Shown piece by piece: positions 1,119 to 59,090 of a stretch of DNA of 64,000 bases. Below the pieces are notes generated by a model. The model was not told the origin of the DNA, did not search any database, and saw only the letters and a program-made list of their open reading frames with translations. The translations under genes and the position numbers were made by a program. Source of the DNA: Lingula anatina (taxonomy: Eukaryota; Animalia; Brachiopoda); NCBI GenBank assembly GCA_051362555.1, contig CM120648.1, positions 18,658,587-18,722,586 on the forward strand. The letters are read 5' to 3'. The number at the start of each line of letters is the position of its first letter. Position 1 is the stretch's first letter.

Positions 1119-2671
1119 ATTGAAAGAATTGTTGAGTCGGATGACGATACAAGCAGTCCGAGCAGCCCAGAACAAGAAGAACCTTCCAGGTAAGGATCTC
1201 CATTTTACTGTCAAATGTGATCAGTAGCCATCATTTTTACGCGTCATGTAGGCCCTAGCGTAACCTTACCTAGTATGCCATATATTTATAAATGACTTAG
1301 ACCTTAGTGCTTCTTAATCTTACTTTAACTGAAGACAAGCATGTTATTACTTCAATAGCATTTATTTATTTCCTTTCTTTCTTTCTTTTTAATTGTAAAG
1401 CAGTACCAGTTCAGGTGGTGTCAGCCAAAGAAAGCCAGAAAGACGAGAAGGAAGATCAGGGAGACCACCAACAAGATTAAGGGGGGTTGGTCGTGGTGCA
1501 GGCAGCAGAGCAGAGCCAGTGGCAGGTTCAAGCACCAGTGGTTTGAGGCAGGGAAGAGGCAGGAGATCAGGAGTAAGGGGCAGGACATCAGGAGGAAGAG
1601 GCAAGACATCAAGAGGAAGAGGCAGGAGATCAGGAGGAAGAGGAAGGGAATTTCGGTTGACTGAGGAACAAGAAGAAAGAATAAGAGATCTCCGAGAGGC
1701 CAGGCACAAAGAACTAGAGGTATGAATTATGTTGAAATCTACATTGGATATAAGAATTTTAGGTGTTGCCATATAACCATACACAGCTGCCATTGATATA
1801 TCCCTTTCTTTAGTGTTTAGTATTTATATATGTCTTTTTTTCCAAAAACTACTCTAATTATCTAATATCACTAGAAATGTCAGACCAAAAAGGCTAATAT
1901 TGACTTTTTATAAATTGACAGAGCATGTGTGATGGTGTGGACAAGGAGGCCCTAAAAGGTATAGTGGTGAAAGTGTGTGACCGGAATCCTGCCCTGGCAC
2001 TGGACATAAAGAAGATTTTGCAGGAAAACCTACCTGGTGGCAGTGACCCAGAACCTTTACCTCCACAGCCTGATTCACCAGATTGGTGCATGTGTGGTGC
2101 ATGTGTAGAAATGCCCACTGAAGCAGAGAGGCTGTGTTGTCAAAAGCCTCCTGCTGAGTGTAAAAGCAGAGACCCTGTAAGTGGCTAAGAATGTTTAAAA
2201 TGCAGGTGTAATGTTTACAATTTTTAAGAAGAAATGTTTCATTCGACATTTATTTGTAATATCTTCCTCATGTTGTATAATGACAAATTAAAATCAATTA
2301 AAAATGCAGTTATGATTAACATGTTTCTTTCTTACAATCATGAACTTAGTTTTTTTTTTTTTATTATTTTTTTGTTATTATTTTATTTGCAGGTAATGGA
2401 ATTAAATGTAACAGACGAATTTCATCTTGGGATTATGCGAGTAGCAAGGGGGGACATCCTGGGCTTCCAAAATGAAGATAGGCAGCCAGGAGAAGAGGAC
2501 AATGCTGCCATGCGGCACAATGCCTATCGTAGTTTCATAATGTGGCAATATAACAGGCTTACTCCTGGTGACCGCAGAGTAATTCCGTCCTGTTGTGTTT
2601 GGTTCATTAGGAATAAGTTCCCCTCTCCCACAGGTCAGTATAGGGGATTTGATCCAGGGCGTATAGTTTAG
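1119..2671 (+). CDS. Kolobok accessory (KolX-like) protein with an RG-rich N-terminus and a P2X7 C-terminal ballast/nanor-like Zn-Cys domain; spliced, start codon uncertain
   Basis: Phase-compatible exons ~1119-1189, ~1401-1719, ~1922-2176 and ~2393-2671 with AG/GT ends. Motifs WCMCGAC..MPTEAERLCC and MRHNAYRSFIMW..RRVIPSCCVWFIRNKFPSPTGQYRGF closely resemble the vertebrate P2RX7 C-terminus (RHCAYR..LPSCCRWRIRKEFP..GQYSGF). No channel domain is present. Confidence 0.85.
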
Positions 2672-3778
2672 AAGAGCAATGGACAGGGGATGGGAATGGG
2701 CCATCTCCCACTCATCCATTGGTGACTTGCTGCAGCAGTAAGGGGATGGGAATGGGCCATCTCCCACTCACCTGCTGTGTATGTCCACTGCATTTGTCTG
2801 CTAATAAGTTCAATAGATTTTTTATGATTAAAGAACAACAATTGTCACCAGGAGTTAGTCTGTTTACATGTCATTCTTTTCAAACATATAGTTTATTTTC
2901 TACATCATGTGTTATCAAACTCTCTGTGGATATCTGAGATTCAAATCTGGTTATCATTTCCTTATTGGTTTTAGTGTAGAAATTTGTATTTCAAGATGTC
3001 TTAGAAGATAAGATTGTGTACTTGTTGCACTTTTACTAGAAGTCATGCATTAATTGATATATAGTTATCAGTTTATCATGTGCGCCATTTTAAATCTGTT
3101 GTTGATTTAAGATATACTCATCATTCTTGTAATTTTGATTACATAAAAATGTCAGTGTCTAATCTTTTAAATGTTAAAAGTTTGTTTTTTGGTATGTGAC
3201 TCCATGTGTATATAACTTCATATTTTAAAAATGCCTTTCATGGCTTAGTATAGATAATTATTTATTTATAGTATAGATATTTATTACTTATTCAACATCA
3301 TCTTTCAAGATAAGTTTGTGTTGAGATATTGTATAAAAGAAACACATCAATTAATATAATGTTATCAGATTACCAAGAGGCCTGTTTTAAATCTGTTTAA
3401 ACAGTAAAGTAGAGATTATTATCATTTTTATTTATCAGTGTAATCAATGTTGGTTTATGATTAGGGAAGTAAGAAAAACAGCTATGGTAAAGTTACATTT
3501 ATTTTCTACATTTAAAACATTAAACTGTATGAAGTCTGCTCATACTTGTAACTGTTATCAATAATTGTCAAAAGCAAGATCTTGCAATGAATGAACATGC
3601 ATGCTGGCATTAAACTATTTTATCTAATTTATATGTTCATAAAGTGAGCATCTCTTGTAAATAATGGAGATTTACAGTGCTTATTCTTTTCTGCAGATCA
3701 CATTACTGAACATGAACTATATTCAATGTAATAACTGTATTCACTGCTGAGACTGATAAAAAAAAAATGTCACAAAAT

Positions 3779-6700
3779 TTACTTAAATCTGGACTTTCTG
3801 TCTCTGACTAGAACATCTTTGGGGGGTGCAGGGACTGGGGCTGTATTTGGCCCAAGGTTCCTTGGGTCCCATGGTTCCAACAGCACCCTAGCTGCTAAAG
3901 GCCGTGCACTTGTCATTCTCATGTCAAATGCCAGAGTTTGTAAGATGTGGATGTAGTCATAAGTCTTTCTAATGGCTTGAGGTTTCACTATCCATGATTT
4001 GGCATGTTTGCTGTAACACTTAGTATACCTGAAATAAAACAGTGGCAAGACTTTAATTCGTTTTCAAGAAAATGACTTTGCATGTAATAACCTTTAAAAT
4101 ATGAGTTTACAAGTGAAAATAACCATAGTAACAAGTTTTCTTTGGCACATAGACTTTAAAAACGGAATTATATATTAATTTTTGCTGTTTACCTTATTTC
4201 ACCGGATTCCAAGTCAACTGCAGCTCCTCTATCTTTATGGTTCTGATAATCCATGACTGCCAAGTAATTACGTGCCCTGTATCCAGGTGGCTTGTAGGAA
4301 TTTCTTTTTGAGCAATACATTAGAATGTGAGAGTTAATACTCTCAATGTGTCCCGTGTGTCTAAAAAAAAGAAAAACAAAAAAATTGAACATCCAGTTAT
4401 TTGTAATAAGCGGTGTTATTTATTGGTTTCTATCAATGGAGTCATATTTGGCATTGAAATAATACCCTTGCCTTGAATTGAAATAAAAAACTTTGCAATC
4501 AATTACAAATACCAACAAAAATAATTAACACCATTGTTAATTTTTGTTCTTTTCCACACCTGTTATTGACATAGTGTCCAATGTCCTTTTGGAATCTTTT
4601 GTTAAGTAGAATCTGCCCCAATGCAGCCAGTCCCTGTGAAGATGGTTCCAACCACTTCTTCATTCTCTCTTCATCAGGCGGTAGGGGGTTGTGTTCACAC
4701 TTGGCTGTCCAAAAACCATCACCTGATAACCATTCGTGCTCATTTTGCACATGGTGCATTGCACCTCTCCACTTTGACTAAATAAAAAATCAGAATTCAT
4801 TTAGTAAACAAGAAATGTGAAAAATTAAAAATGTCTATATAGGCAGTTCAAAAGAAACAATGAACATTTCTTGTCAATGATGTTAAAGGCAGGATCAAAC
4901 TCACCAGGAACTTTCCATGACTTCCCTCACAAGTCCTAGCACATTCCCAAAAATGGGTGCATAAGTCCTTGCTCCATGGGATAATATCGCGCGTAGCCTT
5001 TTTCTGTCCTGCCTGTGATTGTAAATAAGATGTCATTTTAAACATGGAAATATACCAATATGCAGCATTCAATGTTTTGTACAAGTATTTTATGTTTATA
5101 TTTTTAACAATGTTTTGGTTTATTTGTGAAAATAACTACCTGCCAGATAAGAATTATTTTCAGGAATTAATCAGCATCAAAATAACACATTCGTAAATTA
5201 AAATTCTATGGGTCACTGTTGGTCTTTATACAATTTGATCAAAATAAATAAATTTCAAAACTTACCGCAATAATTTTCTTTGCTAAGTTTTTGGTACCAT
5301 GCCACACATCCCAAGAATGTTTCATGCCAGGCTCGTTTTTCCCTAAAATTTCAGATATAAAAAATTATCATGTCACAACAGTGGCATTTTGTGTAAGGGG
5401 AAATCAAACTTGCTCTTTATTGTTAATTTGAACTTGGACAACAATTGAGGTTGCATTACTTGTTTGTCAATGTCATCACATAAAGATATGTTTGAACTTA
5501 CTTATATGTGCAGCAATGCTAACATGAGCATCCGTGACAATCTCCACTACATTGATACCCCTCTCTCTAAGGAACCTGAGTGACCTCAGCAAGCCCTCTT
5601 TCTCCATGGCATTGCTATTTAGTTGGGTTTCTTTCTTCTCTACAACTTGAATGTCCAGGACATCCCCTGTCTCATAATTTGTGACTACATAAGTACAGTA
5701 CTGGGCACTGTGTCCTGGACTATCCATCCTTCCATCACCTGAAAATATATACAGTTTTCCATCAAAAATCCATAACACTCATTTGAGGCAAAATATTTAT
5801 TTGTTATAAATACTTGAGACACTATTTTACCAATTTCTCTTGTCTTATTTTAATTGTTAAGTAATACATCAGAGATATCTTCATACCAGCAATAATCACT
5901 TCCTTATTTTGGCAAGAGGCAAGGATCTCATCTTGCATTTGTCGAAAATGGTGTTCTACAGCAGGTATGCCATAATCCCTCTGTATAGCATAATAGGTCT
6001 TCTCACTAACAAATCCACTGTTCATCCACTGGGACATAAACCGAACTTTCCTGTAATTGTTCCCACTAAACAGAAGACTAGTGGACCAGAAAAAATCCCC
6101 AGCCAACATGCCTAGGTTCAACTTGGGTTGAGAGCACCACTGACCACCTTCATGGCCATCTGGGCATGACTGAAAAAAAAAAAAGAAATATATTTCAATT
6201 TCTTATCAAGATATGCAAATGCCCACCTGAAAATTAATTATAAAAAATGTGTTAAAATTGTTTACATTTTGATCATATGAAAAAATGCTGTACATTAATG
6301 TTTCAAATGTGCATCTTAATGTGGTGTGTAAACATATTACAAAATTACATTAGTGTAATACATTTGACCGGTTTTCTGCATGAAAATATGATATATAAAA
6401 GAGAAGATTTTAGAAAAACTGTATTAATAATAATGGACATAAGCAGTGTATGTGTGACAAGATTATAGGCCCACTGTTTGAGGATACCAGCACATAGTCA
6501 TTGATAATAATCTTATTACATCTCACGTTTAATAAAAAATAAAACCTATATCCTACTTAGGGTAATGAGAGACTAAAACCTGTGATACTTCATTTAAATT
6601 CCTGAATGTTCTTTAAAATTATTACTTAATGGTAGAAGACTTGGTACAATTTACTAACCCCGTATTACAATGTAGTCACAAAGGTCTTTTACCTGAAATA

Positions 6701-9700
6701 GTGCCTTAATTTTATATTTATTAATTAAATATCCAGTGAGAGCAAGGGAGACCACCCCTCACCTCTGCAGCTTCAATATAGCTTGTAACTCAGTTGAACT
6801 CCCCGTATCAGAAAGACAGAGCACCATCGTAAATAATATCAGAAATACATTTATAAAGATTAACCCAAGAAATATTTTGGTTATAATCATAGATATTCTG
6901 AAATAAAGTGAAAAGGACAATGTAACCTACCCACTTCACATATGTTCCTGTGCCAGACTTCTGAAAGGACACCACATACTTTTTGCTGCAAGGGCAAGGT
7001 GGCAACAACTCTTCCAATAGCAGTCTAATAGATGATTCATAAGTCAGAAAACAACTTTGCCCCACAATTTCTTCAGCTGATGTCACTTTACTGAACAGCT
7101 TGCTGCCATCAGGAATAGGGCCTATCTCTACTTCCTCATCTCCAGGTAAAATATCATCATCTCCACACTAGTGGGCCTGATTTGATCTTAAAGTGCAATT
7201 TCAGTCTAACACTAGACTGAACCGGCCTTAAAAATTAAGGAAGGACTCTTAATTTAGTCTTAAGACTAAAAACAAACTTAAACTGCAGTGAGTAAGACTA
7301 TAATTGGTCTAAATTCAACTGAAGTGGCAAAGCAATTATCTCCCCACACACATTCAGACCAGACTTGGACTTACTATCTAGCCAGACAGGTGAAGATAGC
7401 AATCAAGTAGAGGGCCATTGTGTGAGTAGCAAAGGGTGGTCTCTTGGCAAGTAAGTGCTAATTGCCTAATTGATAAGGGTGATTCATATACTGTCTCAGA
7501 TAATTTCTAAAGCAAGGAAAGATTTGGTTGTGGAAGTACTAGTGCAGCATACTTTTAATGTTTTGACATAAGAGCTTAGGAATATAGTTTTGAAAGCATT
7601 AACAAACAAGGTACATTTATTTTAAAATTAGACATGACCTTTTATTTGTCACAAACAATTGAAAAGTCACTTCAATCTAACATAAAAATGTACAGTTTTA
7701 TTTAAAACCACATTATACCACAGGAATTTTATGTTAGAATTTGATATGCAAAACAATATACATGTATTTCTTGATTTTTGCCTCTGAAGGAAGTTTTTCT
7801 CTCTTTTTTCTTTCTTTGATTTTTCTGATCAAAACACATTTTATCAAACATTTATAAACCAAATAAAATCACCATCTATAGCTGTTACAAGGGGTTTGCT
7901 AATATCACTGAGTGGTACCATTTTGTTTCCCTGGAATTTATTTTTTGAAAAAAAGAAATCCAGTTCTTTCTGAGGTGGGAAAAAATATCTAACAAGACCC
8001 ACACTGTTTCACAATGCCTGTATAAGTCTGACAGCCTTCCAAAGTGAATTACTCCTCCTCTGCTGTAGCTATGTACAGTTGGAGTTCTTGTGTAAATACT
8101 AAATGTCAAAACCTTTTAATAAAGAAAAATTGTGAAAATGTATGCTACATTTCCCCTGCTTTAGAAATTATCTGAGATAGTATCTGATTCACCCTTTAGA
8201 TATAAATCAAAATCAAAGAAAGAGAAAAGAAAGAAAGAAAGGAAGACTTCCTTCAAAACAACATTAAAAGTATGCTGCACTAGTACTTCCATAACCAAAT
8301 CTTTCCTTGCTTTAGAAATTATCTGAGACAGTATCTGAATCACCCTTATCAATTAGGCAATTAGCACTTACTTGCCAAGAGACCACCCTTTGCTACTCAC
8401 ACAATGGCCTTCTACTTGATTGTTATCTTCACCTGTCTGGCTGGAGAGTAAGTCCAAGTTTGGTCTGAATGTGTGTGGGGAGATAATTGCTTTGCCACTT
8501 CAGTTGAATTTAGACCAATTATAGTCTTACTCACTGCAGTTTAAGTTTGTTTTTAGTCTTAAGACTAAATTAAGAGTCCCTCCTTAATTTTTAAGACCGG
8601 TTCAGTCTAGTGTTAGACTGAAATTGCACTTTAAGATCAAATCAGGCCCACTAGTGCCAGTGACTGTTGGCAGTTTCATCACCTCTTCAATATTGTTGTG
8701 TCTGGAATAAATATATACGTTTTATTTATTTTTTTTAAATACCTTTGTCACAAAATAGTATATATAGTAATTTCAAGTCTATTAATGGGAATTCATGTAC
8801 ATTTGCACATTGCATGTGTAATAACTTTGGAATTTTGATATGAAACTAATGAAATATCTCCACACATCCCCCCCCCCCCCCAAAAAAAAAAAAAAAAGGT
8901 ATTAAGTTAAAAATTATAATTATATCAAAACATATAGAGGAGATTGTAAAAAAAATATACGCACTGGAAAGATATGTCAGCTTTGTAATTTGGATAGGTA
9001 TCATCATCATTATCCTCATTATATTCATCTTCAATTTCTTCATATGTGAGATTAACACTGAAATGAAAAGAAAGTCCAGTTGGCAATGAGGATGTAACTA
9101 TACTACATATGTATTAAATGACAGGTGGAGTCATACCAGATTTCATAATACTTGACAAATACAAAAGTTAATGAAATAAACTATTTTTTCACAGTTATAA
9201 CTAAAAAGGAGGTAAACATACCTCATATCATTGGGATCAAACATGGAAACTTTGCTTTCCCTTGCAGCTGCTTCTGGTCCACTACCAGCACTTTCTACAC
9301 CTGACATGGGTGCACTGAATAAAGGAAATAAAAAAAAAAAATTAATATTTTTAGTAAAACACTTCACGTGCTATTGGATATAGCTCAAACTAACTGGTGG
9401 TATAAGTCCCATGGCAAAACAGCCATCGGACTTATAAAACTTGTAAAATAGTATCATATTAAAGGCTCCATTACCCATGGATGTCATCAGTCTTCACTGA
9501 TCATTGTAACTCAATATGTACTCTTCCTGAATACAGTTTCAGAAAAGCTGGTGATTATATGAGTATGTTGGAAACAAAAAGTGACAGTCATTCAGATTGC
9601 ACCAGAGAGAGTTCTTACAGAGGTGGCTCCATCTACACAGACCAATGGTATCTATGACAATGGGGTCAAATAATAACATGCATTACACTTGTTTCTATTG

Positions 9701-10608
9701 CAAGGTTTATAATGGATGGTGAAATAAACAGCTATTACAGGACTGGCAAGATTTTTTGTGAAAGCATGCGCTCTGGATAAGTAAAGTTTATGTGAAAAAA
9801 ATAAATTACAAGTAAAACATAGTCTAATGGAAATCAATTACTTAGTTCAGACCAGTATCAGATTGGGAGGACATGAAGATTTCTAATAATGCAGGTCCTC
9901 CAGACCGTCAGAGCCTAAAAATTTATCCTGATGGCTGTTAAGTTATCAAACACTTACTCTGACTCTGATTTTGACTCAATGTCACTCAACTGTATTGGGG
10001 GCAGTGGTTTTGAGCTGGCTGTGGGGGTACTGGTAGGCCTACTGGTAGATGTCCGCTGTGCATAATACCTGCAGGGTTTTAAAAAATTACCATGACGGCG
10101 TGAGTCATTATATCCCGGCATTAAACAATTCAAAACGTTTATGGCGAATAAAATTTAAATCATGGATGTTTACCTCGCTTACATACTCCAAAATTAATGT
10201 GCACACAATCTAAGATTGTAGGCTACTTGTAGTGGGGAGATAGAGTCAAGTAGGACATTACGTAAGAAAGTGAGAATCTAGCCGTTTTGATACAAACCTG
10301 CCCACACTTCTTCCCTAAATAAATATACTCAAAACATTCTACGTGCGACGCGGGTGCTCTGCCTAAAATGTATCGTGACATTTTCTACAATTCATTTGAG
10401 ATCGTACTAACCTGTCCAACAGAATTTTCGCAAGTCGCTCGTGTGTTAGTTTTAGTTCATTTTTTAGCTCAGTCCATCTAGTTGATTGGCTTCCCAGTGA
10501 GATCAACGTTCTCTGCTTTTCCCTTTCTCTTTTTCTCTCTTTTTTCACTGGCGTGGGGAGTTTTTTCCTCCCTCTTTTCAATCCACGTGTAGTCGGAGTA
10601 CCCTCCAT
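3779..10608 (-). pseudogene. Kolobok-type DDE transposase, 12 exons, disrupted by a CACTA insertion in exon 5
   Basis: Hand-spliced, phase-consistent exons: 10608-10412, 10068-~9958, 9315-9222, ~9057-8965, 8701-6931 (minus the insertion), 6169-5887, 5738-5502, 5342-5266, 5012-4905, 4777-4560, 4360-4193 and 4028-3779. Motifs are CPDGH..WCSQP, GDGRMDSPGHSAQYCTY (D1), IVTDAH (D2), WDVWH and HTGHIESINS..Y.SKR (E). Confidence 0.85.
7166..8656. mobile_element. Non-autonomous CACTA (EnSpm) element with ~400-bp terminal inverted repeats
   Basis: Starts CACTAGTGGGCCTGAT and ends ATCAGGCCCACTAGTG. Arms ~7166-7562 and ~8260-8656 are inverted with few mismatches. 3-bp TSD CCA at 7163-7165 and 8657-8659. 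Confidence 0.9.
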
Positions 10609-10917
10609 ATTGGATTACATTAACATCCGGGTCTTCGTCATACCGTAGTAAAAGTGCTAGTAGTATTCAGTCATATGCAAATTGAGGCACGTCCCAGAAT
10701 TCCACGCGTAGGGGAGTAATGGCGAGAAGTTTAGACGAAAAAAAAAATGCTGCGCTTTTTTTCTTTAAGTGATCTTAAAAACCTATACCTTGACCTTTAT
10801 TTTCTCAACGGTTCCGTGTGAGACATGCTTCAGGGTTCAGGATCAAATAGGTAAAGTTTCAGAGAAAGGCCTATTTAAGCGTCTACAGCGGAAAGACATC
10901 CTTTAATGTTTATATAC

Positions 10918-13900
10918 CTTGTGATGATGTATGCACCTTCTTCTTTCTACTGGATGAACCGGTTGCTGAAATCGGCATTTACATGTTAAAATTAGCTGAT
11001 ATAAATAATAATAATCAAAATGCATTTTGATCAAGTGATTATGTAATGTCCTAAATTCATGTGTTAAAATGGGTGATGTAATTATACATTAAAATATGCA
11101 AGTAATCAGAAGCAGTTAACACTGATTGGAAAACATAAAATAAATACATATATTTTAATAAAATCTAAAATTAAATATAATAAATACCTCTTCTTTTAAA
11201 TGGTACATGGCAGGAATGTTCATAGCTAACAAAGAAAATAGCAATACTATATATGAACATATGATGATTACCTTTCCCTGATGTTAACAAATAATATATC
11301 TGTATAAGGATGGGTCCCACTCTACAGTTACTCTTGTAAAGTGTAATCTGCATAACTGAATGACATGCCTCCTCCAGCGGCTACAGGGTACTGAACTTGC
11401 ATGTGTGCTCAGATTAATTACCTCCTAGGTGTTGAAGAAGGCAAGTCACACAGTAAAGGTATAAGGATCTCACACAGAGTTGTACCAACCCAACTTAATG
11501 TAATAGGCTGTGTTTCCCTGTATAAGGATCTAAGAGATTGCATTCTTTTAATTTTAATTTCAATATTTCTCTCAATATGATAATTTATATTGTTTTACTT
11601 ACAACTTTAAAACAGATGTATTAGAATATATATGCAATAAGCACCTGTTCTTAAGCCCGTTTCATGACTAGAATCTGTAGCTTGCACGTCTTCATGCCTA
11701 GTATAGATGGAGGTGGATTCTGCATTACTATCATTCCTAGGATAGATGGAGGTGGATTCTGCATTACTATCATTCCTAGTATAGATGGAGGTGGATTCTG
11801 CATTACTATCATTCCTAGTATTCATGGAGGTGGATTCTGCATTACTATCATTCCTAGTATTCATGGAGGTGGATTCTGCATTACTATCATTCCTAGTATA
11901 GATGGAGGTGGATTCTGCATTACTATCATTCGTAGTATTCATGGAGGTGGATTCTGCATTACTATCATTCCTAGTATAGATGGAGGTGGATTCTGCATTA
12001 CTATCATTCCTAGTATTCATGGAGGTGGATTCTGCATTACTATCATTCCTAGTATTCATGGAGGTGGATTCTGCATTACTATCATTCCTAGTATTCATGG
12101 AGGTGGATTCTGCATTACTATCATTCCTAGTATAGATGGAGGTGGATTCTGCATTACTATCATTCGTAGTATTCATGGAGGTGGATTCTGCATTACTATC
12201 ATTCCTAGTATAGATGGAGGTGGATTCTGCATTACTATCATTCCTAGTATTCATGGAGGTGGATTCTGCATTACTATCATTCCTAGTATTCATGGAGGTG
12301 GATTCTGCATTACTATCATTCCTAGTATAGATGGAGGTGGATTATGCATTACTATCATTCCTAGTATAGATGGAGGTGGATTATGCATTACTATCATTCC
12401 TAGTATGGATGGAGGTGGATTCTGCATTACTATCATTCCTAGTATAGATGGAGGTGGATTCTGCATTACTATCATTCCTAGTATTCATGGAGGTGGATTC
12501 TGCATTACTATCATTCCTAGTATTCATGGAGGTGGATTCTACATTACTATCATTCCTAGTATAGATGGAGGTGGATTCTGCATTACTATCATTCCTAGTA
12601 TTCATGGAGGTGGATTCTGCATTACTATCATTCCTAGTATAGATGGAGGTGGATTCTGCATTACTATCATTCCTAGTATTCATGGAGGTGGATTCTGCAT
12701 TACTATCATTCCTAGTATAGATGGAGGTGGATTCTGCATTACTATCATTCCTAGTATAGATGGAGGTGGATTCTGCATTACTATCATTCCTAGTATAGAT
12801 GGAGGTGGATTCTGCATTACTATCTTTCTTAGTATTCATGGAGGTGGATTCTGCATTACTATCATTCCTAGTATTCATGGAGGTGGATTCTGCATTACTA
12901 TCATTCCTAGTATTCATGGAGGTGGATTCTGCATTACTATCATTCCTAGTATTCATGGAGGTGGATTCTGCATTACTATCATTCCTAGTATAGATGGATG
13001 TGGATTCTGCATTACTATCATTCCTAGTATAGATGGAGGTGGATTCTGCATTACTATCATTCCTAGTATAGATGGAGGTGGATTCTGCATCACTATCATT
13101 CCTAGTATAGATGGAGGTGGATTCTGCATTACTATCATTCCTAGTATTCATGGAGGTGGATTCTGCATTACTATCATTCCTAGTATAGATGGAGGTGGAT
13201 TCTGCATTACTATCATTCCTAGTATAGATGGAGGTGGATTCTGCATTACTATCATTCCTAGTATTCATGGAGGTGGATTCTGCATTACTATCATTCCTAG
13301 TATTCATGGAGGTGGATTCTGCATTACTATCATTCCTAGTATTCATGGAGGTGGATTCTGCATTACTATCATTCCTAGTATTCATGGAGGTGGATTCTGC
13401 ATTACTATCATTCCTAGTATAGATGGAGGTGGATTCTGCATTACTATCATTCCTAGTATTCATGGAGGTGGATTCTGCATTACTATCATTCCTAGTATAG
13501 ATGGAGGTGGATTCTGCATTACTATCATTCCTAGTATTCATGGAGGTGGATTCTGCATTACTATCATTCCTAGTATTCATGGAGGTGGATTCTGCATTAC
13601 TATCATTCCTAGTATAGATGGAGGTGGATTCTGCATTACTATCATTCCTAGTATTCATGGAGGTGGATTCTGCATTACTATCATTCCTAGTATAGATGGA
13701 GGTGGATTCTGCATTACTATCATTCCTAGTATTCATGGAGGTGGATTCTGCATTACTATCATTCCTAGTATTCATGGAGGTGGATTCTGCATTACTATCA
13801 TTCCTAGTATAGATGGAGGTGGATTCTGCATTACTATCATTCCTAGTATTCATGGAGGTGGATTCTGCATTACTATCATTCCTAGTATAGATGGAGGTGG

Positions 13901-15979
13901 ATTCTGCATTACTATCATTCCTAGTATTCATGGAGGTGGATTCTGCATTACTATCATTCCTAGTATAGATGGAGGTGGATTCTGCATTACTATCATTCCT
14001 AGTATTCATGGAGGTGGATTCTGCATTACTATCATTCCTAGTATTCATTGAGGTGGATTCTGCATTACTATCATTCCTAGTATTCATGGAGGTGGATTCT
14101 GCATTACTATCATTCCTAGTATTCATGGAGGTGGATTCTGCATTACTATCATTCCTAGTATAGATGGAGGTGGATTCTGCATTACTATCATTCCTAGTAT
14201 TCATGGAGGTGGATTCTGCATTACTATCATTCCTAGTATAGATGGAGGTGGATTCTGCATTACTATCATTCCTAGTATAGATGGAGGTGGATTCTGCATT
14301 ACTATCATTCCTAGTATTCATGGAGGTGGATTCTGCATTACTATCATTCCTAGTATAGATGGAGGTGGATTCTGCATTACTATCATTCCTAGTATAGATG
14401 GAGGTGGATTCTGCATTACTATCATTCCTAGTATTCATGGAGGTGGATTCTGCATTACTATCATTCCTAGTATAGATGGAGGTGGATTCTGCATTACTAT
14501 CATTCCTAGTATTCATGGAGGTGGATTCTGCATTACTATCATTCCTAGTATAGATGGAGGTGGATTCTGCATTACTATCATTCCTAGTATTCATGGAGGT
14601 GGATTCTGCATTACTATCATTCCTAGTATTCATTGAGGTGGATTCTGCATTACTATCATTCCTAGTATTCATGGAGGTGGATTCTGCATTACTATCATTC
14701 CTAGTATTCATGGAGGTGGATTCTGCATTACTATCATTCCTAGTATAGATGGAGGTGGATTCTGCATTACTATCATTCCTAGTATTCATGGAGGTGGATT
14801 CTGCATTACTATCATTCCTAGTATAGATGGAGGTGGATTCTGCATTACTATCATTCCTAGTATAGATGGAGGTGGATTCTGCATTACTATCATTCCTAGT
14901 ATTCATGGAGGTGGATTCTGCATTACTATCATTCCTAGTATAGATGGAGGTGGATTCTGCATTACTATCATTCCTAGTATTCATGGAGGTGGATTCTGCA
15001 TTACTATCATCTACATAAGAACAAATACATGTACTTTATTACCAAACATTACATTTAAACCACTTTCATTATAATTAAATTTCATACCTATGAACAACTG
15101 GCTGTCGTTTCCAGCCAATTCTTTGATACCCTCTACTGCAGTTTCTCCAATTATCTCTATTACCTGATCAGTATAAACATACAGAGATATATGTATATAT
15201 AAAATATGCCTCCTGGTGATTGGACATTCCAATAGGGCATGTCTGTGAAACTCAGTGTCGACGTATTCATATTCACAGAGTCAGTCTAAGTTAATTACTC
15301 TACTTAATATCATCTTGATGTTCTTAAAGCAATTAAATATAAAACGAAGTTAGCCATTGTGCAATTTAATATACAAATTCATTTTTTTTAAATAAATAAC
15401 AAAATAACACCTTCTTCTTCCACTCTGACAGTGGACTGGGCCCCACACCACCACCTGTCTGCCGCATTGCTGCACGGCGTTTGGCCTCTTTGCGCTTAGT
15501 GCGAGACGTGAGGTCATGCCATTTTTTCCTGACCTCTCGGAAACTCCTCTTTATATGTGAAACACTGTTAACTCTAAAAGGAAAGCATTCATAATTTTGA
15601 TAAAAAAAATATATAAGAATCACCACTTTATTGCTTCATCATACTGTGCATGACCATGTCAAGATGTGTTAATAGAGAGCAATTACAATTACTTTTATTG
15701 AATAACTACAACAACATACCAAACTAAATCATCAATAAGCAATAATTAAATATAATGGATATAATTTTAACATGGCAAAACAGACTACGATTAACAGAAA
15801 AGGACTGTTAATCATAATTATTCAACTTACTTTTCGGCAACTTCAGCCCATTGTTTTTCTTTGGACTTTAGAGTCACGGTGTTGGTGAAGGGGCTAAATA
15901 CTGTAGGTCTACACGAGACCTCCTCCACCAACACCGCGAGCTCATCGGTTTTATAACGCTCCCTGCTGTGTTTCTCCAT
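10918..15979 (-). CDS. Myb/SANT-like DNA-binding protein (Harbinger accessory, MSANTD/NAIF1-like) with a giant repeat exon containing premature stops; 3' exons not in the window
   Basis: Exons 15979-15831, 15573-15411, 15163-15088, 15010-11645 and 10965-10918 splice in phase. Translation: MEKHSRERYKTDELAVLVEEV..KEKQWAEVAEKVNSVSHIKRSFREVRKKWHDL..RQTGGG..VIEIIGETAVEGI, a typical trihelix Myb_DNA-bind_5 pattern. In-frame TAA at ~12381 and ~12342. Confidence 0.8.
11697..15010. repeat. 39-bp minisatellite, ~85 near-identical copies, two main variants
   Basis: Unit ATGGAGGTGGATTCTGCATTACTATCATTCCTAGTA(TTC/TAG). The minus strand encodes NDSNAESTS(MN/IY)TR. Confidence 0.98.
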
Positions 15980-42366: not shown

Positions 42367-43360
42367 TCTGACAGTGCTGGCTTTCTATAATGACTTCTCT
42401 ATACAGCTGATAACAATTACCTCTGACAGTGCTGGCTTTCTATAATGACTTCTCTATACAGCTGATAACAATTACCTCTGACATTGCTGGCTTTCTATAA
42501 TGACTTCTCTATACAGCTGATAACAATTACCTCTGACAGTGCTGGCTTTCTATAATGACTTCTCTATACAGCTGATAACAATTACCTCTGACAGTGCTGG
42601 CTTTCTATAATGACTTCTCTATACAGCTGATAACAATTACCTCTGACATTGCTGGCTTTCTATAATGACTTCTCTATACAGCTGATAACAATTACCTCTG
42701 ACATTGCTGGCTTTCTATAATGACTTCTCTATACAGCTGATAACGATTACCTCTGACAGTGCTGGCTTTCTATAATGACTTCTCTATACAGCTGATAACG
42801 ATTACCTCTGACAGTGCTGGCTTTCTATAATGACTTCTCTATACAGCTGATAACAATTACCTCTGACAGTGCTGGCTTTCTATAATGACTTCTCTATACA
42901 GCTGATAACGATTACCTCTGACAGTGCTGACTTTCTATAATGACTTCTCTATACAGCTGATAACGATTACCTCTGACATTGCTGGCTTTCTATAATGACT
43001 TCTCTATACAGCTGATAACGATTACCTCTGACAGTGCTGACTTTCTATAATGACTTCTCTATACAGCTGATAACGATTACCTCTGACAGTGCTGACTTTC
43101 TATAATGACTTCTCTATACAGCTGATAACGATTACCTCTGACATTGCTGGCTTTCTATAATGACTTCTCTATACAGCTGATAACGATTACCTCTGACAGT
43201 GCTGGCTTTCTATAATGACTTCTCTATACAGCTGATAACAATTACCTCTGACATTGCTGGCTTTCTATAATGACTTCTCTATACAGCTGATAACAATTAC
43301 CTCTGACATTGCTGGCTTTCTATAATGACTTCTCTATACAGCTGATAACAATTACCTCTG
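42367..43360. repeat. 55-bp satellite, ~18 copies
   Basis: Unit CTCTGACAGTGCTGGCTTTCTATAATGACTTCTCTATACAGCTGATAACAATTAC. Confidence 0.97.
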
Positions 43361-44535
43361 GCAGAAAACGGCGCAATGGGCCAGGAAACTGGTCACCTTT
43401 ATGGTATTGATTTTTGTGTACACAGGGGCGGATCCAGGATTATTTGAAGGGGGAGGGTCTGCTGATCCAGAATTCACCGTTAAGAAATGACCCCTCCCAA
43501 AAAAGCCTTTTTTGTATCCTGTTTGAGCTCATTAACTTGTGGTCAACTATGCCATTTTTTTTGCGATACGATCTTGTTCAAGGATACAGGTTCGCCCCAA
43601 ACCGATTGCTCTCTTACCTCAAAATGCAAAAGTGTTAAACTGATAATAAAACCTATGAGTTGCCTATGCTTTTAAATTGCAACGAGAAATGTTACGGCGA
43701 TATTTTATATATTCAAGGGCATTTTATTGTTTTAAAACATCAAAGATAGACCCATTATTGAATAATTAGTTGCCAGAATAATCTTATTATCGGTATCTGG
43801 TTGTAACAAAGGCCTACAATAGCCCTAAGCTTAATCAGCTTATTTATCCCTAACAACCAGCACACAGCTTATCAGGCCGAGTCCTGTAGTGACGTCACCA
43901 CCTATTTAGCAAGCGGTGACCCCGCCTGGCGCAACACCTGCTCTATTAAAAAATTGTGAATTAGGTATGACTTCGTTTTTTTAGATAAGTTTTCAAATAA
44001 AAATAAAAAATGGTTATTTCCCTTCACATAAAAAAATGTGCTATTACGGTGGGGGGGGGGGGGGGGGGGTCACAAGTTAAAGATTCCTATTTGTATGAAT
44101 AGTGCTCTTGATGATCGGGACCTTGCCGACTTTGTGAAAATTTTTAATAATGAGAGAACTCTTAATTGCACACCTATCTAAAACGCCAATGTACTTTAAA
44201 GTCGTGCCTGTCTACACAAGTTTATAACTCCGAGCTACGCAATTTAAGTTGCAAATGTAACAACATTTACTTCATTTCCATCAATCGTTAATGATGCAGA
44301 GGGACTGCCGTGTTACAGAAAGGAAACTTGTACGAAAAAACAGGAACTTTGCCTTGAATAATTTGTCATTGTTAACTCAAGGTCAAAAAGGTCGTTGCGA
44401 AGGCAATCGATCTTCTCAAAACAACTTCTCTGCGGAGTATATTCAATGGACACTAAATTTAGTTTTATTTAACTGACCCTGTCACCTGTCGTAAATCATT
44501 ATATTGTTCTCCGTTTACCTGCAGAGGGCCATATC

Positions 44536-48129: not shown

Positions 48130-48812
48130 AGACCATCCCCACAGATATTTAGATTGATCTAGCCGCCTGGGCAGTCTCACTAGATTGGTGTCAGCTTAAC
48201 CGGCTTAAATGTCCCGTCTACTGAAAGCTGTAAGGGGGTAAATGACTTTCGTGTGCGCTTGGTTCCTGGAAGCAGAAATTTAGCGTGTTATATAGCAATT
48301 TAGGGAGCAAGATCGATCCAGATGGATTGATCTAAATCTGTGGAAACCCAGTCTAAGACCCCATTCCCACAGATTTTAGATCGATCTATCCCCGTGGGGA
48401 GTCTCACTAGATTGGTGTCAGATAAGCTGGCTTCAATGTCTGACCAGCCTACTAAAAGTAAGGTAGGGTAATTAACTATAGTGCGGAATCCCCAGGGAGT
48501 TAGGTGGATCAATCTTAATCTGTGGGAACCATTCCCAGAGATATTGTACTAACTTTGGATCGATCTATCTCCAAGGGGATTCTCACTAAATTGCTATCAA
48601 CTTATGCGGCTAAAATGTCTGTTACACCTACTAAAGATGTTAGGGAATAATTAACTACCAGAGGGCGAGCGTGCACGAAAGTTAATTATTCCCTAGTTGA
48701 TTCGAAAGGCGTGACAGACATTTAAGCCTCTTAAGTTGATAGCAATTTAGCGTGAACCCCTTTGGAGTTAGACTGATCCTGTTGGGTCGATCTAGGCATG
48801 GGAACCCAGTCT
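48130..48812. mobile_element. Cluster of three related GATCGATCTA-family MITEs
   Basis: Three successive starts CCAT(T/C)CCCACAGAT at ~48133, 48361 and 48529, sharing an internal CTCACTA..GTAAGGGGGTAATTAACT core. Confidence 0.7.
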
Positions 48813-51800
48813 TACACAGTGTAATAAATTAGGGAGTATTCAGATTCAAGTTAACATACATCTATACATGGGAACCCAGTCTTACACAGTGTAATAAATT
48901 AGGGAGTATTCAGATTCAAGTTAACATACATCTAGACATGGGAACCCAGTCTTACACAGTGTAATAAATTAGGGAGTATTCAGATTCAAGTTAACATACA
49001 TCTAGACATGGGAACCCAGTCTTACACAGTGTAATAAATTAGGGAGTTTTCAGATTCAAGTTAACATACATCTAGGCATGGGAACCCAGTCTTACACAGT
49101 GTAATAAATTAGGGAGTATTCAGATTCAAGTTAACATACATCTAGACATGGGAACCCAGTCTTACACAGTGTAATAAATTAGGGAGTATTCAGATTCAAG
49201 TTAACATACATCTAGACATGGGAACCCAGTCTTACACAGTGTAAGAAATTAGGGAGTATTCAGATTCAAGTTAACATACATCTAGACATGGGAACCCAGT
49301 CTTACACAGTGTAATAAATTAGGGAGTATTCAGATTCAAGTTAACATACATCTAGACATGGGAACCCAGTCCTACACAGTGTAATAAATTAGGGAGTATT
49401 CAGATTCAAGTAAACATACATCTAGACATGGGAACCCAGTCTTACACAGTGTAATAAATTAGGGAGTATTCAGATTCAAGTTAACATACATCTAGGCATG
49501 TGAACCCAGTCATACACAGTGTAATAAATTAGGGAGTATTCAGATTCAAGTTAACATACATCTAGACATGGGAACCCAGTCTTACACAGTGTAATAAATT
49601 AGAGAGTATTCAGATTCAAGATAACATACATCTAGACATGTGAACCCAGTATTACACAGAGTAATAAATTAGGGAGTATTCAGATTCAAAATAACATACA
49701 TCTAGACATGTGAACCCAGTCTTACACAGTGTAATAGATTGGGGAGTATTCAGATTCAAGTTAACATACATCTAGACATGGGAACCCAGTCTTACACAGT
49801 GTAATAAATTAGGGAGTATTCAGATTCAAGTAAACATACATCTAGATATGGGAACCCGGTCTTACACAGTGTAATAAATTAGGGAGTATTCAGATTCAAG
49901 TTAACATACATCTAGACATGGGAACCCAGTCTTACACAGTGTAATAAATTAGGGAGTATTCAGATTCAAAATAACATACATCTAGACATGTGAACCCAGT
50001 CTTACACAGTGTAATAGATTGGGGAGTATTCAGATTCAAGTTAACATACATCTAGACATGGGAACCCAGTCTTACACAGTGTAATAAATTAGGGAGTATT
50101 CAGATTCAAGTAAACATACATCTAGATATGGGAACCCGGTCTTACACAGTGTAATAAATTAGGGAGTATTCAGATTCAAGTTAACATACATCTAGACATG
50201 GGAACCCAGTCTTACACAGTGTAATAAATTAGGGAGTATTCAGATTCAAGTTAACATACATCTAGGCATGTGAACCCAGTCATACACAGTGTAATAAATT
50301 AGGGAGTATTCAGATTCAAGTTAACATACATCTAGACATGGGAACCCAGTCTTACACAGTGTAATAAATTAGAGAGTATTCAGATTCAAGATAACATACA
50401 TCTAGACATGTGAACCCAGTATTACACAGAGTAATAAATTAGGGAGTATTCAGATTCAAAATAACATACATCTAGACATGTGAACCCAGTCTTACACAGT
50501 GTAATAGATTGGGGAGTATTCAGATTCAAGTTAACATACATCTAGACATGGGAACCCAGTATTACACAGTGTAATAAATTAGGGAGAATTCAGATTCAAG
50601 TTAACATACATCTAGACATGGGAACCCAGTCTTACACAGTGTAATAAATTAGGGAGTATTCAGATTCAAGATAACATACATCTAGACATGGGAACCCAGT
50701 CTTACACAGTGTAATAAATTAGGGAGTATTCAGATTCAAGTTAACATACATCTAGACATGGGAACCCAGTCTTACACAGTTAAATAAATTGGGGAGTATT
50801 CAGATTCAAGTTAACATACATCTAGGCATGGGAACCCAGTCTTACACAGTGTAATAAATTAGGGAGTATTCAGATTCAAGATAACATACATCTAGGCATG
50901 GGAACCCAGTCTTACACAGTGTAATAAATTAGGGATTATTCAGATTCAAGTTAACATACATCTAGACATGGGAACCCAGTCTTACACAGTGTAATAAATT
51001 GGGGAGTATTCAGATTCAAGTTAACATACATCTAGGCATGGGAACCCAGTCTTACACAGTGTAATAAATTGGGGAGTATTCAGATTCAAGTTAACATACA
51101 TCTAGACATGGGAACCCAGTCTTACACAGTGTAATAAATTAGGGAGTATTCAGATTCAAGATAACATACATCTAGACATGTGAACCCAGTATTACACAGA
51201 GTAATAAATTAGGGAGTATTCAGATTCAAAATAACATACATCTAGACATGTGAACCCAGTCTTACACAGTGTAATAGATTGGGGAGTATTCAGATTCAAG
51301 TTAACATACATCTAGACATGGGAACCCAGTATTACACAGTGTAATAAATTAGGGAGTATTCAGATTCAAGTTAACATACATCTAGACATGGGAACCCAGT
51401 CTTACACAGTGTAATAAATTAGAGAGTATTCAGATTCAAGATAACATACATCTAGACATGTGAACCCAGTATTACACAGAGTAATAAATTAGGGAGTATT
51501 CAGATTCAAAATAACATACATCTAGACATGTGAACCCAGTCTTACACAGTGTAATAGATTGGGGAGTATTCAGATTCAAGTTAACATACATCTAGACATG
51601 GGAACCCAGTCTTACACAGTGTAATAAATTAGGGAGTATTCAGATTCAAGTAAACATACATCTAGATATGGGAACCCGGTCTTACACAGTGTAATAAATT
51701 AGGGAGTATTCAGATTCAAGTTAACATACATCTAGACATGGGAACCCAGTCTTACACAGTGTAATAAATTAGGGAGTATTCAGATTCAAGTTAACATACA

Positions 51801-53532
51801 TCTAGGCATGTGAACCCAGTCATACACAGTGTAATAAATTAGGGAGTATTCAGATTCAAGTTAACATACATCTAGACATGGGAACCCAGTCTTACACAGT
51901 GTAATAAATTAGAGAGTATTCAGATTCAAGATAACATACATCTAGACATGTGAACCCAGTATTACACAGAGTAATAAATTAGGGAGTATTCAGATTCAAA
52001 ATAACATACATCTAGACATGTGAACCCAGTCTTACACAGTGTAATAGATTGGGGAGTATTCAGATTCAAGTTAACATACATCTAGACATGGGAACCCAGT
52101 ATTACACAGTGTAATAAATTAGGGAGTTTTCAGATTCAAGTTAACATACATCTAGACATGGGAACCCAGTCTTACACAGTGTAATAAATTAGGGAGTATT
52201 CAGATTCAAGATAACATACATCTAGACATGGGAACCCAGTCTTACACAGTGTAATAAATTAGGGAGTATTCAGATTCAAGTTAACATACATCTAGACATG
52301 GGAACCCAGTCTTACACAGTGTAATAAATTGGGGAGTATTCAGATTCAAGTTAACATACATCTAGGCATGGGAACCCAGTCTTACACAGTGTAATAAATT
52401 AGGGAGTATTCAGATTCAAGATAACATACATCTAGGCATGGGAACCCAGTCTTACACAGTGTAATAAATTAGGGATTATTCAGATTCAAGTTAACATACA
52501 TCTAGACATGGGAACCCAGTCTTACACAGTGTAATAAATTGGGGAGTATTCAGATTCAAGTTAACATACATCTAGGCATGGGAACCCAGTCTTACACAGT
52601 GTAATAAATTGGGGAGTATTCAGATTCAAGTTAACATACATCTAGACATGGGAACCCAGTCTTACACAGTGTAATAAATTAGGGAGTATTCAGATTCAAG
52701 ATAACATACATCTAGACATGTGAACCCAGTATTACACAGAGTAATAAATTAGGGAGTATTCAGATTCAAAATAACATACATCTAGACATGTGAACCCAGT
52801 CTTACACAGTGTAATAGATTGGGGAGTATTCAGATTCAAGTTAACATACATCTAGACATGGGAACCCAGTATTACACAGTGTAATAAATTAGGGAGTATT
52901 CAGATTCAAGTTAACATACATCTAGACATGGGAACCCAGTCTTACACAGTGTAATAAATTAGGGAGTATTCAGATTCAAGATAACATACATCTAGACATG
53001 GGAACCCAGTCTTACACAGTGTAATAAATTAGGGAGTATTCAGATTCAAGTTAACATACATCTAGACATGGGAACCCAGTCTTACACAGAGTAATAAATT
53101 GGGGAGTATTCAGATTCAAGTTAACATACATCTAGGCATGGGAACCCAGTCTTACACAGTGTAATAAATTAGGGAGTATTCAGATTCAAGATAACATACA
53201 TCTAGGCATGGGAACCCAGTCTTACACAGTGTAATAAATTAGGGATTATTCAGATTCAAGTTAACATACATCTAGACATGGGAACCCAGTCTTACACAGT
53301 GTAATAAATTGGGGAGTATTCAGATTCAAGTTAACATACATCTAGGCATGGGAACCCAGTCTTACACAGTGTAATAAATTGGGGAGTATTCAGATTCAAG
53401 TTAACATACATCTAGACATGGGAACCCAGTCTTACACAGTGTAATAAATTAGGGAGTATTCAGATTCAAGTTAACATACATCTAGACATGGGAACCCAGT
53501 CTTACACAGTGTAATATTCAAGTTAACATACC
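48790..53532. repeat. 70-bp satellite, ~67 copies, with higher-order structure
   Basis: Unit TCTAGACATGGGAACCCAGTCTTACACAGTGTAATAAATTAGGGAGTATTCAGATTCAAGTTAACATACA. Confidence 0.98.
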
Positions 53533-57746: not shown

Positions 57747-58134
57747 GAACAATCCTTATTCCTTGCAGATACCTGTTTTAAAATTGACATTCTACTGGCA
57801 CCTGAACTCGCTGTGTCATCTATTATCCACTGCTCTGTGATGCCGTTTTGTTTCTCGTGGCCTGTGATGCCGTTGCCGCCATTCTGTGTCCTGTCCTGGC
57901 CTTTCTCCTAAGCGAGTCAGTGCTGTACGTGATAAACAGGCGCCATTTTCTTCAACAGCCAGGAAGTAACAGGACGGAGATTGTGGGATAATGTTGAACA
58001 TATTTGACAAAGAAAGAGATATAATCTGACCGACTTGTAGGTATATGGAGCAAGTGTTTATGTTACTGTGATCTCCAAGCTGCAGCACCAGAAGTAAACA
58101 TAAAGTTTAGCAATCACTGACAGAAATATTACAG

Positions 58135-59090
58135 GATCTACTGTCGGAATGGAAGCCATGTTAGGGCAGTCTAGACGAGGTGTAAATCCAAGATCAGGAC
58201 AGGTGACAGTACAGACACAACCTCCATTAGCTGAACAGGAAACAAATACAACATCAGCTCCAAATCATCTTGTATTCTTAGACAAGGCAGAATGTGTGCG
58301 TTCCTTCAGTACTAAACTGGAAGATGATAGAGGAGGAATATACATATCTGGGTTAGCCATAGATAAGGAACACATGTTTGTTGTGAATGGAGGAAACAAC
58401 AGAACAAAAGTATTCACACATGAAGGACAATTTAAGTTTGACATTAAAGTAAACAGACCATTTGATGTGGCTGTGTCACAGACTGGTCACCTGTATATAA
58501 CATCACCAGATGACAGATGTGTCCAAGTGTACTCCACCAGAGGTCAGCAGGTGACAACCATGGGTCAGGGTCTACTGGAGTCACCATGGGGTATTACACT
58601 GAACAGACAAGGTCATGTGATGGTTTGTGACAGAGAAAAGAAGTCCATCTTGACATTCCATGCAGACAGTGGACAGCTCCTGAACACTATTCCACACAGT
58701 ATGTGTAGTGACCCAGTGTACATCACAGTGAACAGTGTGAATGATAACATTGTGATATCAGAGTTGGGATACTGTGTACATGTGCTGTCACCTACTGGTG
58801 ATCATCTGTACCAGTATGACTGCAGCAGAGAAGGCAGTGAACTGTGGTTACCACATGGAGTGTGCACAGACAGCTATGGTCACATCTTCATTGCTGACAG
58901 TGGTAACCGCAGGATAGTGGCACTGAGTCCACAGGGACAGTTTATTAGATACATTGTCACTAAGGATGATAGGTTGTGGTCTCCCAGTGCAGTAGTCATC
59001 AACCCTGCTACTGGTCAACTGGTGGTGGGAGGGATATGGTTTGGCAATGTTAAGACATTCCAGTACATTGAACTGAAACAAGGTGAGTAA
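58135..59090 (+). CDS. NHL-repeat six-bladed beta-propeller exon (TRIM2/3/71-like C-terminal domain)
   Basis: 313-aa open frame with blades ISGLAID, PFDVAVSQTGHLYIT, PWGITLNRQGHVMVCD, PVYITVN, PHGVCTDSYGHIFIADSGNRRI and PSAVVIN. In-frame AG acceptor at 58134; ends CAAG|GTGAGTAA, which could be a donor or a stop. Confidence 0.9.

Follow-up and report, generated by a model that had tools for sequence, protein, structure and literature searches.

A 64,000-nt stretch of Lingula anatina DNA (the window) was found to carry two spliced, convergent genes, one encoding a DDE transposase of 703 aa (minus strand) and the other a ballast-only protein (plus strand). These genes almost certainly represent a Kol0-type Kolobok DNA transposon with a convergent KolX gene, an assignment for which motifs were compared by eye. 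The explanation as a whole, in which the transposase of this Kol0 Kolobok has been broken by a nested CACTA-type element and KolX is likely a transposition helper, is one that we hold with considerable confidence. The element is an ordinary two-gene cut-and-paste transposon of known type, and there is no novelty in the link between KolX and the P2X7 ballast. With regard to a preliminary description of this DNA, the observations made there are partly confirmed and the interpretation is partly supported.

Table 1. Positions of the features found in the window.
Feature	Position	Strand	Remarks
KolX gene (ballast-fold accessory protein)	exons 1119-1189, 1401-1719, 1922-2176, 2393-2671	+	RefSeq comparison, Pfam, fold, spliced reads
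21-bp tandem repeat, 4.6 copies	1552..1647	+	encodes part of KolX Arg-Gly-rich tract
Kolobok DDD/E transposase	3779..10608	-	12 exons, 11 GT-AG introns; RefSeq comparison, motifs, spliced reads
Transposase exons 1-6	10608-10412, 10068-9958, 9314-9222, 9057-8965, 8701-6931 (interrupted), 6169-5887	-	
Transposase exons 7-12	5738-5502, 5342-5266, 5012-4905, 4777-4560, 4360-4193, 4028-3779	-	
Nested non-coding CACTA-type (EnSpm/CMC-like) element	7166..8656	.	1,491 bp, in transposase exon 5
Transposon terminus upstream of transposase (Kolobok RR end)	10888..10902	-	reads 5'-AG inward
TTAA flank, likely target-site duplication copy	10903..10906	.	one side only within window

The KolX coding exons are separated by three introns, all GT-AG, and leave 307 codons open, with 4 substitutions relative to the RefSeq protein XP_013383832.1 (P0001). 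The first six residues of the RefSeq protein were not found in positions 1-1118, even at 4 substitutions, and the start exon is either outside the window or lost. An ATG near 880 with a possible donor was considered as an alternative first exon and rejected, as no spliced read supports it. Five spliced reads (RNA run X12), attributable to the species and not to one copy, span the intron at 1720-1921; three transposase introns are also spanned by spliced reads (5+1+1, 3 and 4, not copy-specific) on the strand opposite to KolX. This RNA evidence consists of raw reads from the same species, the share examined being about 6% for three runs and 25% for another. The GT-AG exon structures and the spliced reads on opposite strands bear out the initial reading of two intron-rich, convergent genes.

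From its acidic N-terminus, the KolX protein continues into an Arg-Gly tract, a three-helix region (residues 118-172) and a Zn-Cys ballast domain (residues 187-312). Residues 38-115 hold 25 Arg/Lys and 20 Gly, and the Arg-Gly-rich tract has low model confidence. P2RX7_C (PF20478) was the sole Pfam family above cut-off on the RefSeq protein (E 8.5e-27); the P2X channel domain (PF00864) was not found above cut-off in this protein, and the structure model is without a channel part. In a sequence search KolX matched P2X7 with an E value of 4e-20, and only 4 PDB sequences were matched, all of them P2X7. Moreover, all 14 Foldseek matches of the KolX model at E<=0.001 were P2X7, and superposition on the P2X7 ballast (PDB 6U9V) gave a Z score of 13.7 and an rmsd of 2.3 A over 118 residues with 34% identity, compared with a Z score of 4.0 for the next-best fold match among 48,161 chains. 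All seven zinc cysteines are kept (rat-aligned C477, 479, 482, 498, 499, 506 and 572), and all seven are present in 119 of the 137 homologues. The structural match to the P2X7 ballast and the zinc ligands that the preliminary description had anticipated were therefore found, and its claim of a stand-alone P2RX7 tail without an ion-channel part is borne out by Pfam, the open frame and the fold match.

Kojima and Bao 2022 (PMC9587614) had already assigned the ballast fold to KolX and considered that the P2X7 tail and nanor had probably arisen from it, nanor being taken to be domesticated. Figure S6 of that paper aligns KolX with P2X7 and nanor, and may already cover the GDP-site residues. The suggestion that such elements were the source of the P2X7 ballast and nanor agrees with this published conclusion and so is not new. 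The name Lingula is absent from all four supplements of that paper. Conservation among the KolX homologues is highest in the Zn/Arg ballast core, not in the Arg-Gly tract. A family glycine loop, GxLGxGxR, is present in 87 of 137 homologues, and Lingula KolX has Asn and Thr at G275 and G278. The KolX alignment yielded no usable pattern, and the viral contigs searched contained no relatives. One metagenome match (L001, E 2e-5) was set aside as weak, since it fell in a low-complexity part and was without a profile match.

When the nested element is set aside, the transposase gene comprises 703 codons, with 3 differences from RefSeq LOC106154126. It encodes D353, D421, the DxxH signature D442-V-W-H445, C519/H521 and E571. 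A 22-row alignment shows conservation of at least 90% for the acidic residues D353, D421, D442 and E571, and equally for H501, H506, C519 and H521, which belong to a zinc finger located between the DxxH motif and the final Glu. The DDE core that had been noticed in one of the genes is thus confirmed by the conserved D353, D421 and E571 and the DxxH signature. A Pfam match to 'Mutator' (PF20700, E 1.3e-6) was read as reflecting a shared DDE core, not MuDR membership, and the matches below cut-off to OrfB_IS605, Dppa2_A, HTH_32, Hydrolase and LTXXQ were rejected as noise. AlphaFold modelling of the transposase from its sequence alone gave no usable structure (mean pLDDT 36.8), the transposase profile had no PDB match at E values up to 10, an Atlas query with the transposase N-terminus returned unnamed clusters only, and a literature search for a link between ZNF653/ZNF692 and the transposase found nothing relevant.

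The transposase motifs agree with those of the Kol0 type member Kolobok_1_XT1p in Data S5, as compared by eye with P0006. All Kolobok lineages but Kolobok1 have a zinc finger in the interval from the DxxH motif to the final Glu. KolobokP, KolobokE, KolobokD and Kolobok5 are marked by a CCHC finger that follows the first Asp of the catalytic triad, and nuclease accessory proteins occur in P, E and D. The interval from D353 to D421 of the Lingula transposase contains one Cys only and hence no such CCHC finger, and the second gene of the element encodes a ballast-fold protein, unlike the nuclease accessory proteins of KolobokP/E/D. Although piggyBac elements also use TTAA, the Lingula end does not fit them, as it starts with AG and 5'-RR termini separate Kolobok from piggyBac (PMC9587614). 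The transposase motifs, the P2X7 sequence match and the ballast fold together support the proposal that this is a Kolobok element with KolX as its second gene.

The element end reads ACATCCT followed directly by TTAA, with its last letter at 10902. Its terminal 15-mer occurs once in the window, at 10888-10902, and a second TIR or TTAA is not visible there; the CCT/TTAA end reported initially is therefore present, but the element cannot be called bounded within the window. In RNA run X18, 56 reads agree with the window as far as 10906, the last letter of TTAA, and diverge from it beyond that point (consensus agreement 0.79), and the reads of this run cover 10703-10906, breaking off at both positions. 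Since they diverge just past TTAA, this border is common to related copies. Linkage of the two genes was counted in one assembly (G001) from one host sample, in which a convergent transposase lies within approximately 1.2 kb of 9 of the 14 KolX loci; of the other KolX loci, one runs off its contig and four have none listed. All 9 transposase loci that cover the catalytic or C-terminal part adjoin a convergent KolX, and the remaining 4 of 13 match profile positions 131-239 only and have no KolX. The expected co-occurrence of both genes in other copies was thus seen (9/9 in this assembly). A related locus (L002) is a complete element with the same layout, a 19-bp perfect TIR (AG...CT) and TTAA/TTGA flanks; no TIR pair was found around locus L003.

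The defining features of CACTA/EnSpm-type elements are ends reading CACTA...TAGTG, together with TIRs and a short duplication of the target. The insertion in the transposase gene has CACTA...TAGTG ends, 397-bp inverted repeats that are 98% alike and a 3-bp target duplication, CCA, at 7163-7165 and 8657-8659. Its longest stop-free stretch is only 76 codons, which indicates that the nested element is non-autonomous. At 7165, 39 reads with mixed loose flanks (agreement 0.56, RNA run X12) were found, pointing to many genomic copies of the nested element. This insertion was absent from the preliminary description. With the nested element retained, the transposase frame stops after residue 197, ahead of the catalytic core. 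As long as the insertion stays in place, the copy in the window cannot yield a full-length transposase, and it would therefore move only with transposase from another copy.

These observations also bear on whether the gene pair could be a domesticated, immobile host locus of Lingula, as nanor is in fish. Both genes have open frames and neighbouring ids in RefSeq, where each lies on a contig of 171,818 nt. Both also give spliced RNA, and the second end was not seen, all of which would fit such a locus. However, the terminus and TTAA are intact and common to other copies with a different flank, the catalytic residues are all kept, and the knock-out of the transposase by an insertion would be poorly tolerated in a needed host gene, so that domestication appears very improbable.

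It is likely that KolX serves the transposition of its own element. By what is known of Kolobok (PMC9587614) and of DDD/E transposases, the intact enzyme would bind the terminal repeats, cut the element out and insert it at TTAA, and the basic, ribbon-helix-helix-like segment at the transposase N-terminus is a likely candidate for binding the ends. KolX, which is likely to hold two zinc ions structurally, could grip phosphates of either transposon-end DNA or a nucleotide in a pocket formed by R262, H263 and R294, and might thereby contribute to building or directing the transpososome. A role as transposition helper is probable for KolX and is a reasonable reading given the tight linkage of the two genes, although linkage does not prove function. 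As several Kolobok lineages are without KolX, the chemistry of Kolobok elements as a whole does not depend on it. Co-folding of transposase residues 12-703 with KolX residues 110-313, run without alignments or control folds, gave a score of 0.00 twice, which has no bearing either way.

Tight linkage is also predicted if KolX stands outside the transposition machinery and protects the element, for example by countering host silencing or binding RNA via its Arg-Gly tract, or restrains the transposase. KolX forms a gene of its own, with a separate promoter at the opposite end of the element. Its low-confidence N-terminus is Arg-Gly-rich, and such a tract is also seen in 19 of the 38 homologues of sufficient length, a count that is biased because the search query contained the tract. 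Conservation that peaks in the ballast core rather than in the tract argues against a protecting or restraining role, and we regard this role as rather unlikely.

The helper role of KolX could involve a guanine nucleotide, as the preliminary description had suggested in pointing to an RH.AYR nucleotide pocket. R546, H547, Y550 and R578 of this pocket are kept, but R574 and K583 are absent, so that three of the five GDP-site residues of rat P2X7 are retained in KolX (R546, H547 and R578 as R262, H263 and R294), and V290 and S299 stand at R574 and K583. Among the 137 homologues, R574 is found in none and K583 in one, while R262 and R294 are both present in 124 and R262, H263 and R294 all three in 89. 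Judged from these residues, nucleotide regulation of KolX has partial support, and it seems unlikely that the pocket ligand is a free guanine nucleotide controlling transposition. KolX may more specifically be a guanine-nucleotide-binding subunit in trans, which brings GTP/GDP to the transpososome or switches it, as in the P element. The arginines and histidine are kept in a well-superposed fold, the P element transposase needs GTP according to the available part of one paper (PMC7776569), and the P element shares a C/DxxH signature with Kolobok (PMC9587614). On the other hand, R574 and K583 are missing in Lingula KolX and nearly all homologues, binding of DNA phosphates would explain the conserved arginines equally well, and, in the parts of the respective papers available, the P element GTP domain is the only known case among transposases (PMC7776569) and ballast domains from outside the mammals have yet to be shown to bind GDP (Rump et al. 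2020, PMC7016195). A nucleotide-carrying subunit is therefore improbable. If true, it would mean that a guanine-nucleotide cofactor like that of P elements had been invented independently a second time, and the unexplained GDP site of the P2X7 ballast, whose zinc and GDP sites have no known function according to the available text of two papers (PMC9859053, PMC8410900), would be inherited from a transposition switch.

As a discovery the Lingula element carries little weight, since both the connection of KolX with the ballast and the proposed derivation of the P2X7 tail and nanor are already in print (PMC9587614), and the copy is not only damaged but also incompletely contained in the window. 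No paper testing what KolX does was listed in the literature searches made. The Lingula RefSeq pair, with open frames and all catalytic and zinc residues, could provide one usable basis for transposition assays with and without KolX and for GDP-binding assays, for which many other Kol0 elements are equally suitable.

Compared with known systems, KolX is like the P2X7 ballast in its fold, its seven cysteines and R546, H547, Y550 and R578. It differs from P2X7 in having no channel, anchor or membrane helices and no R574 or K583, and from the ballast in the three-helix region and Arg-Gly tract added in front and in being encoded by a transposon. Zebrafish nanor and stand-alone ZCD proteins (PANTHER PTHR36981), as presented in the available part of Rump et al. 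2020 (PMC7016195), are also short and have the zinc cysteines, and nanor-like proteins likewise keep the R546/R578 pair and not R574/K583; this likeness is judged from the published description of nanor, and Lingula KolX, by contrast, is still inside a transposon. The GTP-binding insertion domain of the P element provides, by analogy only, a guanine-nucleotide precedent in a related C/DxxH superfamily. From the available text (PMC7776569), that domain is all-helical and lies inside the transposase, whereas KolX is a separate zinc protein, and it was not among the KolX fold matches listed. With Kol0 Kolobok (PMC9587614), the Lingula element shares the DDD/E transposase, the DxxH signature, the zinc finger before the last Glu, the separate KolX gene and, at the one end in the window, the 5'-RR terminus and TTAA flank. 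It departs from the Kol0 norm in the nested element that disrupts this copy and in a KolX without two family loop glycines; in architecture no difference was found, the host here being a brachiopod.

The first 11 kb of the window hold a KolX gene and a Kolobok transposase gene. Together they form a damaged copy of an element of known kind, one that is real and well supported. The two convergent, intron-rich genes of the preliminary description were recovered on opposite strands, with GT-AG introns, when the RefSeq KolX (P0001, 313 aa) and transposase (P0006, 703 aa) proteins of L. anatina were mapped back onto the window. The last plus-strand exon is identical to a stretch of RefSeq LOC106154127 (P0001) and a minus-strand exon matches LOC106154126 (P0006); these loci have neighbouring identifiers and are both listed on a 171,818-nt contig, and the window pair may be an allele of the RefSeq locus or a further copy of it. 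KolX exon 3 has tandem AG acceptors (1398-1403), which would explain RefSeq isoforms X1 and X2, of 313 and 312 residues. The first six KolX residues were not found encoded in 1-1118, with four substitutions allowed. This stretch, 5' of KolX exon 2, is repeat-like, with many 90-95% reads with loose ends and an internal duplication (284-406 and 545-664, 67%), and may represent insertions within KolX intron 1. An exact 30-bp direct repeat (2685-2714 and 2741-2770) lies right behind the KolX stop codon.

Features located in the window
Feature	Position	Strand	Details
KolX gene	1119-2671	+	four exons in window, GT-AG introns, four substitutions vs P0001
Transposase gene	10608-3779	-	12 exons, 11 GT-AG introns, three substitutions vs P0006
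Nested element	7166-8656		1,491 bp, CACTA...TAGTG ends, CCA duplication
Tandem array	11692-15010		39 bp x 85, 96%
Tandem array	42367-43364		55 bp x 18, 97%
Tandem array	48790-53516		70 bp x 67.5, 95%

Splicing of both genes was found in raw RNA reads from four runs of low depth, in which reads are not copy-specific. The KolX intron 1720-1921 was spliced in 5 reads of run X12, and three transposase introns were spliced as well, the first in 5 reads of X12 and one each of X15 and X16, the second and third in 3 and 4 reads of X12; the first mates of the spliced reads from one gene lay on the strand opposite to those from the other. No splice joint of either gene was among those listed for run X18.

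P2RX7_C was the sole Pfam family found in KolX, and its PDB sequence matches were exclusively to P2X7 (4 sequences). An AlphaFold model (138 rows; 146 residues with pLDDT >90) bears out the proposed structural match to the P2X7 ballast, since the predicted fold retrieved P2X7 in 14/14 Foldseek matches at E<=0.001 and, against 48,161 chains, at Z 13.7, the next best being 4.0. Besides the query, the alignment took in 134 sequences from the 149 further matches listed (1,257 in total; 15 long fused or partial matches were excluded) and three proteins from the search that retrieved P0001. All seven cysteines are kept in the window KolX and in 119/137 homologues, while a family Gly loop present in 87/137 is altered in the window copy. 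Five rat GDP-site residues are named by Rump et al. (PMC7016195); R546, H547 and R578 are kept in the window KolX and in 133/137, 97/137 and 127/137 homologues, and R574 and K583 are missing from it and present in 0/137 and 1/137. A free guanine nucleotide could be the controlling ligand of KolX, by analogy with P element transposase (PMC7776569), a reading that we regard as unlikely. Among five long KolX matches scanned, one was a genuine P2X7. Some long predicted proteins also combine a ballast domain with other domains, namely leucine-rich repeats in P0080 and reverse-transcriptase RNase H and DUF6729 in P0134; these combinations may be genuine fusions or artefacts of gene prediction.

In the transposase alignment (22 rows, the query and all 21 other search matches), D353, D421, D442 and E571 and the set H501/H506/C519/H521 are conserved at >=90%. 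By-eye comparison indicated the same motif order as in Kolobok_1_XT1p of Data S5 of Kojima and Bao, and the CCHC finger that this source gives as typical of KolobokP, E, D and 5 is missing. In an Atlas structure search, P0006 residues 24-75 (10412-10608, minus strand) resembled, below the bar for naming, bacterial ribbon-helix-helix proteins (TM 0.52-0.58) and unannotated N-termini of vertebrate ZNF692/ZNF653 clusters (TM 0.56-0.62 over 45-52 residues). This segment could be a second domain common to Kolobok and vertebrate genes, as a lead only; repeating the query with an oyster homologue added no information on it, and a literature search on it gave nothing relevant.

The transposase is broken in exon 5 by a nested element, which we take, from its terminal signatures, to be of the CACTA-type superfamily. 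It is bounded by a 397-bp inverted repeat pair (98%) and has no long frame; when it is retained the transposase frame stops after residue 197. P0006 is unbroken across the insertion point. At 7165, 39 RNA reads carry mixed loose flanks (agreement 0.56), which suggests a multi-copy family.

Of the CCT/TTAA-bounded element described earlier, one end stands and the second was not found in the window. The end 5' of the transposase gene reads CCT up to 10902, directly before TTAA, and its terminal 15-mer is unique in the window with three mismatches allowed. X18 reads 90-95% alike span 10703-10906 and break off at both limits (73 and 56 reads), as expected of related short copies with the same end at another TTAA site. 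In L002, a complete relative in assembly G001, KolX appears to begin near the terminus; by analogy, the second end would lie upstream of the missing KolX first exon. Transposase intron 2 contains a short repeat (9540-9577) that reads connect with a related stretch in inverted orientation at ~11340-11375, near 11.37 kb; the two look like degraded members of an abundant family of small repeats.

A prokaryote genome scan found two KolX-transposase loci in a single MAG, both with introns and repeats and with the genes tail-to-tail. L002 is a complete 5.4-kb element (8091-13503) with a 19-bp TIR and TTAA/TTGA flanks. Merging the match tables of G001 ourselves gave 14 KolX loci from 19 matches and 13 transposase loci from 30. 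Of the former, 9 have a convergent transposase within ~1.2 kb, 1 is truncated at the end of its contig and 4 have none listed; KolX adjoins 9/9 transposase loci covering the catalytic or C-terminal part and 0/4 matching the pre-catalytic stretch only. All these counts come from this one sample. G001 is a 10.4-Mb GTDB assembly titled Dehalococcoidia MAG with at least 9 Kolobok-KolX loci (contigs C28, C37, C45, C50, C66, C124 and C232); the two examined have intron-like breaks and repeat-rich flanks, and the loci very likely belong to an animal host whose DNA was wrongly binned with a bacterial genome.

Elsewhere in the window, the three tandem arrays are long and homogeneous, and the long stop-free frames of the 39-bp array are probably non-genes. 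A stop-free frame of 328 codons lies at 58104-59087 on the plus strand.

Given how consistently KolX travels with the transposase, it is most likely of benefit to the element, and a role in transposition is probable. In the mechanism proposed here at every step, the transposase would cut the element out and paste it into TTAA sites, as Kolobok generally does, and KolX would serve as a transpososome helper whose zinc-braced Arg/His pocket grips phosphates. The same companionship could reflect an anti-silencing or repressor role, which appears doubtful. Literature searches that paired Kolobok with P2X7, with KolX or with accessory proteins, with most subscription journals outside their scope, found no functional study of KolX. 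The Lingula family is possibly unnamed. Rump et al. report the stand-alone domain across animals and leave its GDP binding open. According to Kojima and Bao (PMC9587614), KolX has 7 cysteines and takes up the ballast fold, a P2X4-like gene fused with KolX to give rise to P2X7, and nanor is likely a domesticated KolX; the earlier suggestion that such elements gave rise to the vertebrate ballast and nanor therefore agrees with that published conclusion and is not new.
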